Part shown: positions 15,545-18,416 of the stretch, one piece after another
How positions within the stretch are numbered: the first letter of the stretch is position 1
Layout of the letters: the number at the start of each line of letters is the position of its first letter
From: a virus
IMG/VR virus record: IMGVR_UViG_3300037067_020797
Span: 1 to 64,000 of that record
Length of the DNA stretch: 64,000 nt
Reading direction: 5' to 3' (one strand)
Notes under the pieces: generated by a model
Database searches by the model: none
Told to the model about the DNA's origin: nothing
The model's input: the letters and a program-made list of their open reading frames with translations, nothing else
Translations under genes and position numbers: made by a program

Positions 15545-16444
15545 TTATTTAGCGGGTTCAGTATTCCATTTAAGTTGTACTAATTCTTCTTTATATTGCT
15601 TTTTGTTGAAATCAATTCTTCGCACACAATTATTACAATATTCACGACATCCGACTTGACCACAACGTTCTTTTGTTATTTGCCAATCGGCGTGAAATTT
15701 GTTTGGGCGAAGATCGCCTTTTATATATGAGAATAAGCCAATCTCTTTGGCTTCATCCCATGTTATGTCTTTTCTCATTGACTCAAAATGTGCTTTATTC
15801 GTATAATGTAATGGCGTTATCAACATACCAGCAGTACCCATGATTTTATAAACTTTTTTATAAAATTTATTCATAGATCTGGTTATATCCGATACCACTC
15901 TTACTTGTACAGGACAGTTATATTTTTTATATTTTATTGCCTGTTTTAGTCGCCATTCATTTGTAGCACCTTGAGCTACAGCGCCAGGTTCATCTTCATC
16001 TCGACCTAAACTGATATGGATTATTCCATTTGCAGCTATTACTAAGTCAGCTACTTGCTTATCAAACTCAAGCAATTTAGATGTAATCACTGGACGCATT
16101 TTATATTGGACACAGTATCTGAGAGCTTGTACAAGTGCAGCTCTTGATAATTTATGGCCACATTCAAAATTTTTTCCAAATCTAAGAATATGCGCAGGAT
16201 ATTTATCGGCAATTTTCTTAAATTCAGATTCCTTTATCGTTTTAACACGATAAGCTCTTGGATCCTTTTTGTAAAGATAAGAAGCATAACAATATTTGCA
16301 TGCACGATCTGAATGAGCTTTATTTTTCTTATCTAAAGTAACCGCACATACTCCGCTTTCTATATCCATATTAAAATCTACAACACAAGCAGGGTAATGT
16401 TCACCTTTACCATTTACAATTTTTGCTACAGGACCTTTAATCAA
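15545..16444 (-). CDS. hypothetical Cys-rich protein
   Basis: 299 aa with several conserved-looking Cys. No recognised catalytic motif. Lies downstream of the retron RT on the same strand. Confidence 0.35.
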   Translation of the reverse strand: MIKGPVAKIVNGKGEHYPACVVDFNMDIESGVCAVTLDKKNKAHSDRACKYCYASYLYKKDPRAYRVKTIKESEFKKIADKYPAHILRFGKNFECGHKLSRAALVQALRYCVQYKMRPVITSKLLEFDKQVADLVIAANGIIHISLGRDEDEPGAVAQGATNEWRLKQAIKYKKYNCPVQVRVVSDITRSMNKFYKKVYKIMGTAGMLITPLHYTNKAHFESMRKDITWDEAKEIGLFSYIKGDLRPNKFHADWQITKERCGQVGCREYCNNCVRRIDFNKKQYKEELVQLKWNTEPAK

Positions 16445-16579
16445 TTCTCATCATTGATGAGAAAATAAATTCCTTGCATATTCTTTCTTATCAAGTTATC
16501 GGGTTAAATGCTTATCGGGTTAATGTAGTATGATTGTCGAAATAATTTCATATACTACAAAAAACGATAATCCAGGCAT

Positions 16580-17032
16580 TTAACTTCCTTTAGGTTTAAT
16601 TTCGGTACAACAATACATGTACATAAATCTATTTGCCTCTGCTGCTAAATATTCTATTTCTTCGGTAGTAATAATTGACGTAGCTAATTTTCTTATTATA
16701 TAAGCAGGCCTATCTTTTATTACTAAATAGTCGAACTCGCATAATCTTTTAAAATAGCCTCCTTCGTAAGGAGTTACATTTTGCATCAGTGCTGCTGTTA
16801 AACCATTGTCCTTATATGTTACAATAAAATTCATGTGTCTAAATATCGGATACTTTTCAGAATACCCAATAACAGGAAATTGGTTTGGATAATACAATCC
16901 AAAAGAAGGGTGAGGTAATTTTAAATAGTTTAAATCAAGTTCTCTGAAACATTCGAAGGCTTTTTTACATTTATCAATCCAAATTTCGTTAGAAATTGGT
17001 TCCCTCTTACAGGATTTAAACTCCGCAGCCAT
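16580..17032 (-). CDS. hypothetical protein, candidate retron accessory or effector
   Basis: Immediately downstream of the RT on the same strand, overlapping it. The true start may be an internal Met. Confidence 0.3.
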   Translation of the reverse strand: MAAEFKSCKREPISNEIWIDKCKKAFECFRELDLNYLKLPHPSFGLYYPNQFPVIGYSEKYPIFRHMNFIVTYKDNGLTAALMQNVTPYEGGYFKRLCEFDYLVIKDRPAYIIRKLATSIITTEEIEYLAAEANRFMYMYCCTEIKPKGS

Positions 17033-17868
17033 TCTATTTTTCCACGAAGCTTTTGGGTATCTTCTTGTGAAATTTCTCCACGGAGCGTTGCTTGATGAAT
17101 TGCGGCTCGTAAATTTCTCCAGATTTCTTTTGGTGTGTTTAATTTATTATTAACAATTACTCCAGTTACTTTTTGACGTCTTGAATTTATACAAACTCGG
17201 CATTTTTTTCTATTTACAATAAATCCATGTCTATATAAAATTTCAGATACTTTAAAAATAATTAAAGAAATGTTAGTCGGATCATTAAGAGAAATTGTTA
17301 CATCATCGGCATATCGAGTTACAGTACATGCAAAAGCTTTTTGTAATTTATCCAGTTCCAAATCCAATCCATAACAAACTAAATTGGTAAAAGCTGGAGA
17401 TGTAGGGGCACCTTGTGGTAGAGAACCATTTAAACATAGAATTTGTGCTAATAGTATAATGTCTTCTCTCGAAGGTATATCAAATATTTTTTGTTTATGA
17501 GTTAGATAAGTAAGATAATGTTTCACCATAATAATGTTAATAGAAGGGAAAAAATCTTTTATATCTAATTTAATAATATATTTTTTACCTACATGCTTTT
17601 CAGCATTAGTTTTGGGACTGCGCCCAGTTACAAACCCATGTGCTATATCATGTGCACGATATCGATATAATAATTTCTTTAAAATTATTTTTTGTATAGC
17701 TTTTAAATTAGGAAGAGGTGCATCTATTCTCCTAACTCTTTTTCCATCACTTTTCTTTATAAAGTAAGTTAAATAGCTCCGAGAAATATCTATTTTTTCC
17801 AGATCGTTTCTCGATAAGCCAAGATATTCAAATATATCCATGTATTCCTTTAAAATATAAATCCCCAC
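16930..17868 (-). CDS. retron-type reverse transcriptase
   Basis: RT motifs IPKSDGKRVRRIDAP, HGFVTGRSPKTNAEKH, LPQGAPTSPAFTNL and YADDVT, plus the retron-diagnostic VTGVIVN motif after the YADD box. About 312 aa. Starts with GTG. Confidence 0.8.
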   Translation of the reverse strand: MGIYILKEYMDIFEYLGLSRNDLEKIDISRSYLTYFIKKSDGKRVRRIDAPLPNLKAIQKIILKKLLYRYRAHDIAHGFVTGRSPKTNAEKHVGKKYIIKLDIKDFFPSINIIMVKHYLTYLTHKQKIFDIPSREDIILLAQILCLNGSLPQGAPTSPAFTNLVCYGLDLELDKLQKAFACTVTRYADDVTISLNDPTNISLIIFKVSEILYRHGFIVNRKKCRVCINSRRQKVTGVIVNNKLNTPKEIWRNLRAAIHQATLRGEISQEDTQKLRGKIEWLRSLNPVRGNQFLTKFGLINVKKPSNVSENLI

Positions 17869-18167
17869 ACTAACTAATGCGTGGCACTACCGAACAGCTT
17901 CGAGGATCTTTTGAACTAATACCCTTCGAAAGATCGGAGAAGATGTGAGGTGAGGCCTAAGCATTAGATACAGTGTACAACAGGAAGAAATTTTCCCGAA
18001 GTGCGATCCGCACTTCTTTAATCGTGAGATTAAAAACTGTGGGGATTTTTCTCAATGTACTAACGTGCTAACTTAGAAGGTTCTAGTTAGTGTTTCTATT
18101 AACGCATGTTCAAAGTGCGAAGCGCACTTTGGGATAGTCCTACTACTTGTCTATCTCTTATGCTACA
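17869..18167 (-). ncRNA. candidate retron non-coding RNA (msr/msd) region
   Basis: 299-nt ORF-free region immediately 5' of the RT on the same strand, richer in GC than the flanks. Inverted repeat CTAATGC (17874-17880) / GCATTAG (17961-17967). Two near-identical hairpins AAGTGCG-nnn-CGCACTT at 17998-18016 and 18111-18131. Confidence 0.4.
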
Positions 18168-18416
18168 TTAGAGTAACGTTTGTATCAACTGAAGTGCTTC
18201 TTCTGTATTTCCAGATAACACCAAAGTATAAATATCTTCTAAATTTTTCTTTAACGTTTCATCTAGGGGTGTAACTTCTGTAAGTACAGCTTCATAATAT
18301 TTGGAAAAATCTTCTGAGGAAACTTCTTCAATGTGCCCAAAAATATCGGTTATTCGAAAACGTCCGTTTGGGAGTTTAAGAACTAATACGGTTAATGCTT
18401 TTTTTCTATATACCAT
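18168..18416 (-). CDS. small hypothetical protein
   Basis: 82 aa ORF upstream of the retron ncRNA region. Confidence 0.3.
   Translation of the reverse strand: MVYRKKALTVLVLKLPNGRFRITDIFGHIEEVSSEDFSKYYEAVLTEVTPLDETLKKNLEDIYTLVLSGNTEEALQLIQTLL

Follow-up and report, generated by a model that had tools for sequence, protein, structure and literature searches.

A retron-clade reverse transcriptase in a large phage, probably served by three tandem msr-msd units

Retrons are understood as bacterial anti-phage systems in which each reverse transcriptase (RT) works with one template RNA. The described bacterial retrons, sorted into types I-XIII, combine an msr-msd non-coding RNA (ncRNA) with an RT and an effector (Mestre et al. 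2020, PMC7736814), and work with engineered arrays has demonstrated that several ncRNAs in tandem can be served by a single retron RT (PMC10370050). Here we describe a retron block within a stretch of 64,000 nt (positions 1-64,000 of IMGVR_UViG_3300037067_020797), referred to below as the window. The block lies on the minus strand, as do all window features below unless marked (+). A sequence-only reading of this DNA had proposed a retron-like module at 15545-18416, made up of an RT, one ncRNA with twin hairpins and downstream genes that might include a novel effector. Comparison of about 30 phage loci gives a different layout, with three tandem minus-strand units in the window (unit 1, 19325-18936; unit 2, 18173-18050; unit 3, 18048-17859), each built in the order a1 arm, unpaired G, stem-loop, GCG-NNN-CGC hairpin, msd, AG and a2 arm. 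We are confident of the retron identity of the locus and of this array-of-units anatomy, and consider it likely that the phage encodes a retron whose single retron-clade RT serves three tandem msr-msd units. In the literature we found no natural retron array, phage-core retron, palindromic msd or decoy multicopy single-stranded DNA (msDNA).

The distinct related loci, about 30 in number and given L-numbers below, were recovered from viral and metagenome collections with an RT alignment and a 299-aa protein encoded downstream of the RT as queries. Viral contigs scanned with the single RT protein gave no match, and matches were obtained with the RT alignment. Synteny was derived by clustering the open reading frames (ORFs) of these loci.

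The reverse transcriptase and the RNA unit nearest to it

The RT (303 aa, 16930..17841) was recognised with Pfam, PADLOC and NCBIfam models and carries NAEKH in region X (NAxxH), YADD, and VTGVIVN in region Y (VTG); among retron hallmarks, the sequence-only reading had pointed out VTGVIVN after YADD. It matched Pfam RVT_1 at 1.3e-24 and PADLOC RT_XIII at 3.7e-75, with the protease-fused, TIR-fused, III-A, I-C and II-A types close behind, and scored 217 bits with NCBIfam retron_St85, just below the curated cutoff of 235, and 216 bits with retron_Ec67. Set against the RT classes that had been named as alternatives, those of group II introns and diversity-generating retroelements (DGRs), the protein scores as a retron RT; the model group_II_RT_mat gave 58.6 bits against a cutoff of 300, and models of defence-associated RTs scored much lower. 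A group II intron was rejected on this score and on the absence of any intron RNA family in Rfam. A DGR was rejected because the RT scores as a retron RT and no second copy of any unit occurs in the window, so that there is no DGR-like template/variable pair. Assignment to retron type XIII was also rejected: positions 142-427 of 469 of that model were matched, the N-terminal extension of type XIII is missing, and Pfam scans of the neighbouring genes found no winged-helix/SWIM zinc-finger partner of the kind described for that type (PMC7736814). By its sequence, the RT is a retron-clade enzyme that fits no single described type. The ORF reported earlier (16930..17868) is real and its start has been revised, as the mechanically assigned GTG at 17868 falls within an RNA stem (a2 of unit 3); the ATG at 17841 (MDIFEYLG), with AGGA 7 nt upstream, matches the start in relatives.

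Directly upstream of the RT lies unit 3 (17859..18048), which is supported by covariation (alignment A5) and by a fold closed by its a1/a2 arms. Arm a1, AAATCCCCACA (18048-18038), pairs with a2, TGTGGGGATTT (17869-17859), and between the two lie the G at 18037, a stem-loop (18033-18018), hairpin B (18016-17998), a further stem-loop (17997-17983), the msd hairpin (17967-17874) and AG. The inverted repeat CTAATGC/GCATTAG (17874-80 / 17961-67), taken earlier for a possible a1/a2 boundary, forms instead the base of this msd hairpin. The suggestion that the 299-nt ORF-free region upstream of the RT is structured was borne out, as it folds better than chance (z = -4.07); unit 3 reaches z = -6.85, with a1/a2 closing both the minimum free energy (MFE) and the centroid fold.

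The region from the 82-aa gene upstream of unit 2 to the RT was aligned across nine loci of the near clade. The unit 3 arms vary by locus with the pairing always kept (CCCCACA / TGTGGGG; GCCACACG / CGTGTGGC; GCCGCACG / CGTGCGGC; AACCACACG / CGTGTGGTT; AGCCACACA / TGTGTGGCT), and 8 of the 12 a1/a2 pairs show compensatory changes on both sides. The covariation score was 0.569, compared with 0.254 in shuffles (0/500), and slid controls scored far lower. At the sequence level, the G after a1 is invariant both here (column 13 of A5) and in unit 2 (column 11 of alignment A7), and in both alignments the AG directly before a2 is conserved. The sequence of the long msd hairpin is unalignable among relatives and the hairpin is always formed. 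With a structured ncRNA that has covarying a1/a2 arms and an invariant G directly upstream of the RT, the earlier retron call stands.

Most relatives (L019, L020, L099-L104) carry a strong GC hairpin followed by T8 between a2 of unit 3 and the start codon of the RT, which there could be expressed only through read-through or from a promoter of its own; the window is without this element and, as judged from the sequences, has lost it. A GACTTCA motif is found near the msr/msd boundary of unit 3 in L100, L101, L103 and L020 (GACTCA in L104), approximately 30-35 nt 3' of hairpin B in the relatives checked.

It might be argued that the locus is not a working retron, the RT being a relic or having another job and the repeats being ordinary RNA or DNA structure. 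No product has been observed, and large Staphylococcus phages are known to carry retron-like RTs of unknown role (10.1101/2020.12.14.422802). However, the catalytic motifs of the RT are intact, the gene is under purifying selection down to 34% identity, compensatory evolution has kept the a1/a2 stems beside an invariant G, and the absence of a second copy of any unit leaves no DGR-like pair. We regard this explanation as highly improbable.

Three tandem units and their recurrence in related loci

The twin hairpins noted earlier (17998-18016 and 18111-18131) are real, and a third of the same kind lies at 19267-19289. They had been placed in one ncRNA; hairpin A (18111-18131) lies upstream of a1 of unit 3 and therefore cannot belong to that unit, and the pair marks two separate units, with the third unit lying outside 15545-18416. 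Unit 2, the short unit (18050..18173), is supported by covariation (A7) and by MFE and centroid folds closed by a1/a2. Its a1, CTCTAATGTA (18173-18164), overlaps the stop codon of the gene for an 82-aa protein (p82), and its a2, TACATTGAGA (18059-18050), stands one base apart from a1 of unit 3. The interior consists of the G at 18163, a stem-loop (18155-18133), hairpin A, an msd hairpin (18090-18068) and AG, and the core frame reads AATGTA-G ... AG-TACATT. Among the loci the arms pair as GAATGTA / TACATTC, AAGCGTA / TACGCTT, AGTGTA / TACACT, AACGTA / TACGTT, AACATACA / TGTATGTT and ATTATA / TATAAT; changes on both sides are present in nine of ten pairs, and 0/500 shuffles reach the observed score. 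The p82 gene (18168..18416) lies between units 1 and 2; its product is found at 31-54% identity in all near-clade loci and had no match in Pfam, PADLOC, PHROGs or NCBIfam.

Unit 1, the long unit (18936..19325), is recognised from a layout shared with relatives and from MFE and centroid folds closed by a1/a2. Arm a1, CATAGCTATA (19325-19316), directly follows the stop codon of a 60-aa gene (p60), and a2, TATAGCTATG (18945-18936), is its exact complement. Between them are the G at 19315, a stem-loop (19308-19290), the GCG-NNN-CGC hairpin (19289-19267), a long hairpin with arms at 19258-19245 / 19159-19146, and an island of palindromes (approximately 19145-18946) in a stretch GC-richer than the rest of the phage. 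The same layout occupies the same place, from the p60 stop to p82, in L019, L020, L099, L100, L101, L104 and L018, and in nine more distant near-clade loci a2 of unit 1 adjoins the p82 start codon. In the window, a 141-aa gene specific to this phage (18467-18892, +) is inserted between a2 and the 82-aa gene, together with a GC hairpin and T-run just after a2 (18891..18927) that is shared back-to-back with the (+) strand gene. As read from the sequence, this hairpin and T-run look like a terminator; a consensus terminator scan did not report them.

When the RT-sense strand of the whole 64 kb was scanned for hairpins with a CG-NNN-CG apex and a stem of at least 6 bp, exactly three matches were returned (19267-19289, 18111-18131 and 17998-18016), which lie 1448, 290 and 175 nt upstream of the RT start. 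The family-wide test covered all hairpins of this kind in the window and 28 loci (29 sequences). A hairpin was counted if a G lay no more than 50 nt upstream of it and the 7 nt just before that G were found again, at most 1 kb downstream, as a perfect reverse complement that itself follows a G. This a1-G...G-a2 pair was present for 39 of the 60 hairpins, often over 9-12 bp, against 7.4 (maximum 11) when the downstream sequence was shuffled. Locus L023 has five consecutive, near-perfect units of approximately 100-130 nt each with arms of 8-12 bp, and distant loci have units upstream of the RT and also 2.4-3.8 kb downstream, after a gene for a 235-aa protein. The array is therefore a property of the family and not of this phage alone. 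Taken together, the RT motifs and scores, the covariation of units 2 and 3, the invariant G, the folds and the synteny support a retron array. An antisense or donor role for the msd sequences was considered and rejected, as they have no meaningful match elsewhere in the window.

Several points weigh against a three-unit retron. The search against retron models proposed earlier succeeded for the RT; for the RNA, Rfam at E up to 10 over 14000-20000 returned no retron or other relevant family. The a1/a2 alignments behind the covariation counts were anchored by hand on the G and AG and joined through an artificial linker, the stem of unit 2 is only 6-7 bp in the window, and hairpin B shows little covariation within the near clade, which is not significant because the hairpin is too conserved there. 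Unit 1 is the weakest of the three: its arms are an invariant palindrome, TATAGCTATA, so that they cannot covary among near-clade loci, and they could be a protein-binding site. The long units that correspond to it in L024, L026, L028, L034 and L044 have different arms of 10-11 bp. Finally, msDNA production, the priming role of the G and docking on the shared hairpin are all ascribed by analogy with retrons of established biochemistry.

These points bear on a narrower explanation, in which only unit 3 is a true msr-msd, units 1 and 2 are RT-binding operators, leader or attenuator structures or separate small RNAs, and the island is unrelated, such as a DNA-level element. Known natural retrons carry one ncRNA per RT, the arms of unit 1 are invariant as well as palindromic, the short stem of unit 2 overlaps the p82 stop codon, and the a1-G in both unit 1 and unit 2 is overlapped by a match to a sigma-70-like -10 element. 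However, the a1/a2 covariation of unit 2 is as strong as that of unit 3, the order of parts and the hairpin are common to all three units, the five L023 units are near-perfect with 8-12-bp arms, and in five distant loci the islands are enclosed by long units with different arms. The reading of TATAGCTATA as a general promoter motif was rejected, since it does not recur as such in the window. We therefore prefer the array of three msr-msd units and consider restriction to unit 3 improbable.

Palindrome islands, phage setting and neighbouring genes

The spacer of unit 1 resembles a polylinker, with CCCGGG, GGGCCC, CAGCTG, GGATCC, CTTAAG, GCCGGC, CTGCAG, ATCGAT, AACGTT and GGCGCC; the recognition sequences of SmaI, PvuII, BamHI, AflII, NaeI and PstI are among them. 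Between window positions 18930 and 19320 there are 16 hexamer palindromes, against a dinucleotide-shuffle mean of 6.9 (standard deviation 2.6), a count reached by 3/1000 shuffles. The corresponding counts are 38 in L099 (shuffle mean 12.4), 34 in L100 (11.0), 44 in L101 (17.2) and 29 in L018 (9.8), each reached by 0/1000 shuffles, an enrichment in relatives of up to 3-fold. The island is also the densest 300-nt stretch of the 64-kb window, with 17 hexamer palindromes against a mean of 5.8 (standard deviation 2.6). Over 17 islands, palindromes of 6, 8 and 10 bp are enriched 3.3-, 4.4- and 4.5-fold; since density was the criterion by which islands were selected, these ratios are inflated. Of the 64 possible hexamers, 62 are present. 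Most family loci examined have an island, which lies upstream of the RT in some and downstream of the block in others. In L024, L026, L028, L034 and L044 the island is inside a long unit (337-674 nt) whose 10-11-bp arms differ in every case; the islands therefore lie within the presumed msd. In a strain that is approximately 98-99% identical in the flanks (L002), the island differs by a 36-nt indel and two lost sites. Besides the window (18946-19145), islands were noted in L099, L100, L101, L018, L032, L026, L034, L036 and L044. No description of such islands as a sequence feature was found in the literature.

The window is AT-rich (approximately 34% GC), has no tRNA genes and had no match in a nucleotide search of the GenBank phage collection. 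A protein identical to the window RT is present on contigs up to 215 kb, where it is surrounded by genes for a single-chain RNA polymerase (Rpb2 and Rpb1 domains), a MoxR AAA protein, a vWA protein, a major-vault-protein-like protein and a LAGLIDADG endonuclease. From this gene content, the carrier of the RT is a large phage of approximately 215 kb; it is carried by the read sets SRR22315506 and SRR18595300. Judged by the vWA protein, which is about 30% identical, the nearest isolates are a Moorella phage and Bacillus phage 0305phi8-36; the Bacillus phage has the MoxR-vWA pair and no RT beside it. The RT holds the same position after MoxR-vWA in about 25 large viral contigs (up to 210 kb), among which RT identity falls as low as 34%. 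Genes there usually follow the order MoxR, vWA, a small ORF or non-coding DNA, RT, a 150-aa-type ORF, an ORF of approximately 65 aa, a variable slot and a glycosyltransferase, the last seen where the fetched flank extends to that gene. The variable slot holds a 299-aa protein, a protein of approximately 235 aa, or nothing. In the window the MoxR AAA ATPase and vWA pair lies at 19503-22216 and, as in nearly all relatives, precedes the retron block.

Immediately downstream, the gene for a 150-aa protein (16580..17032) overlaps the 3' end of the RT gene by 103 nt in another frame, and its product ends in a C-terminal EANRFMYMYC motif. The family accompanies the RT, and overlaps its gene, in most loci of the approximately 25 large viral contigs, which on sequence makes it the most widely conserved neighbour of the RT. 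Its structural model, built with homologues from an exhaustive search, looks like a small chaperone or adaptor and not a toxin; a word-indexed search had returned only a truncated gene call, and the profile had no match among PDB sequences.

The 299-aa protein (15545..16444), the occupant of the variable slot in the window, is Cys-rich, with invariant C33, C49xxC52, C261 and C270xxC273, and has 62 homologues, all metagenomic, and no match among GenBank phage proteins. Its AlphaFold2 model (predicted local distance difference test score 92) suggests a fold like that of radical S-adenosylmethionine (SAM) enzymes; Foldseek against the PDB returned spore photoproduct lyase, pyruvate formate-lyase (PFL) activase and anaerobic sulfatase-maturating enzyme (anSME) at E ~4e-4 and template modelling (TM) scores of 0.45-0.49. 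The Pfam Radical_SAM model scored 14.1 bits against a cutoff of 29.5, and the cluster motif is CX15CX2C, not CX3CX2C. Other relatives carry in the slot a GP88-like protein (Pfam GP88) with the canonical CX3CX2C motif, and in four loci both are absent. Comparison of the 299-aa and GP88-like families by hhalign gave a probability of 15%, with the match around the Cys motif only, so that homology between the two is not established, and the GP88-like profile had no match among PDB sequences.

Two further genes lie beyond the 299-aa gene. An 89-aa zinc-ribbon ORF (15275..15544), outside the conserved block, is missing in L001/L019, and other small ORFs take its place in L002. A 174-aa DEDDh exonuclease (14455-14979; PADLOC 'Effector Exonuclease' 2e-40) stands downstream of the block in those near-clade loci whose fetched sequence extends far enough; it could take part in msDNA processing or be unrelated. 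Apart from this exonuclease, confined to the near clade, no neighbour matched a PADLOC effector model.

Of the downstream genes first named as effector candidates, the 150-aa and 299-aa genes are real, the former conserved in most loci with the RT and the latter confined to the near clade and L026, and the zinc ribbon is missing from the nearest relatives. The case for a novel effector is consequently weak for the 299-aa protein, replaced or absent in relatives that keep the RT, and for the strain-variable zinc ribbon. This bears on the view, taken by the sequence-only reading, that the block is a conventional defence retron carried as phage cargo, in which the RT-msDNA restrains the 299-aa or 150-aa protein and abortive infection excludes competitors. 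All characterised retrons are anti-phage defence systems with a linked effector (PMC7736814), the nearest named families of the RT are defence retrons, a radical-SAM-like enzyme is encoded within the same operon as the RT, and a CX3CX2C protein occupies the 299-aa slot in other relatives. On the other side, in L024, L025, L027 and L032 the 299-aa gene has been replaced or is missing and is thus not linked to the RT throughout the family, its profile match to the replacement is limited to the Cys motif (probability 15%), no neighbour other than the near-clade exonuclease matches an effector model, and the 150-aa model is chaperone-like, not toxin-like. The block also sits at a fixed site and is vertically inherited in a large-phage lineage, unlike mobile defence cargo. 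A defence retron of this kind is, in our judgement, unlikely.

Some further features of the setting may be recorded. A single 2025-aa polypeptide (23567-29644, +) combines Rpb2-type and Rpb1-type domains as a fused beta/beta' RNA polymerase, and an 817-aa protein (11991-14444) has major-vault-protein domains (Vault_3, MVP_shoulder), unusual for a phage, with 64% identity in L005. ORFs of homing-endonuclease type (LAGLIDADG, HNH) occur at differing sites, at 11275-11901 in the window, 1815-2607 and 2857-3649 in L017/L018, 334-2572 in L020, and in L103 and L104; an insert of approximately 790 nt splits the 299-aa gene in L017/L018, and the vWA gene is split in L020. Smaller viral contigs of 10-80 kb (L051-L060 and many others) encode longer RTs of approximately 530-650 aa that are 32-38% identical to the window RT. 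They probably represent prophage-borne retrons of fused-effector type and are separate from the large-phage clade.

Possible role and comparison with known systems

By analogy with characterised retrons, the RT of the array would dock on the GCG-NNN-CGC hairpin shared by each msr, prime on the 2'-OH of G 19315, 18163 and 18037, and copy each msd from the base next to a2. Three different msDNAs would result, from templates of approximately 370, 104 and 168 nt (G to a2) for units 1, 2 and 3. The 150-aa protein is probably translationally coupled to the RT and may join the RT-msDNA complex as an adaptor. The msDNAs would act for the phage and not in abortive-infection defence, and the long msDNA, in which diverse palindromes of 6-10 bp are densely packed, could serve as a multicopy bait for palindrome-reading host proteins, such as restriction enzymes, or as a sponge for them. 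We put forward this function, phage-serving msDNAs with the long one as bait, as a tentative proposal. A phage-side role is favoured because the block has no toxin-like partner, its synteny is fixed, and it has been inherited vertically and deeply in large phages with their own RNA polymerase; such inheritance at a fixed site, as traced in the loci compared, suggests a phage-side function rather than an accessory defence island. The fuller version, a natural multiplex retron in which several msDNAs are made and one palindrome 'polylinker' acts against the host, whether as bait or sponge or as DNA that pairs with itself at many points, is possible but somewhat doubtful.

The bait idea meets difficulties of its own. 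Retron msDNA is single-stranded, and restriction enzymes need duplex sites. Over the 17 islands, palindromes of 4 bp are not enriched (0.93x). GC-rich palindromes are not avoided in the remainder of the phage sequence (206 observed vs 157 expected), so that avoidance of restriction sites elsewhere in the genome, a possibility we had considered, is not supported.

A conserved natural array would mean that multiplex msDNA production has evolved in nature, and it would supply mutually compatible scaffolds for multiplex retron editing. That a whole lineage of approximately 200-kb phages has inherited the block vertically, with no toxin-like partner, suggests that reverse-transcribed DNA is put to use by the phage, for which we know of no mechanism. 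If the islands are restriction-enzyme baits, they would form a new class of anti-defence molecule made of DNA and not protein, and if the multiplex reading is true, retron DNA would here be a phage weapon and not a bacterial alarm.

Compared with bacterial retrons, the locus shares a retron-clade RT with NAxxH and VTG, an upstream ncRNA on the same strand, an a1/a2 stem with an adjacent unpaired G, and msr stem-loops followed by a variable long msd hairpin. It differs in having three tandem ncRNA units per RT (five in the relative L023) where bacterial retrons have one, in lacking a recognisable effector class, with an RT that scores almost equally against many types, and in being a fixed part of a large-phage genome in which one msd is a palindrome island several hundred nt long. 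The 299-aa protein resembles radical SAM enzymes with macromolecular substrates (spore photoproduct lyase, PFL activase, anSME) in its model, where a partial TIM-barrel fold is predicted and the N-terminal Cys cluster sits at the position of the 4Fe-4S site. It differs from them in its CX15CX2C motif, a similarity below the Pfam threshold and TM scores of 0.45-0.49, and a link of the protein to the retron is not established.

Among phages, the closest parallel is found in the Staphylococcus phages MarsHill, Madawaska and Machias (10.1101/2020.12.14.422802), large lytic phages with their own RNA polymerase and a retron-type RT that has a long non-coding region upstream, no obvious effector and an unknown function. 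Their 501-aa RT, which includes an N-terminal domain, is approximately 27-30% identical to that of the window, and neither an ncRNA structure nor an array or palindrome island has been described with it. In its anatomy the locus is most like the engineered arrays, or 'multitrons' (PMC10370050), in which tandem ncRNA/msd units are served by one RT and several msDNAs are made per locus. Those are man-made repeats of one scaffold for multiplex genome editing, whereas the array described here is natural and conserved, and its arms and msd have diverged.

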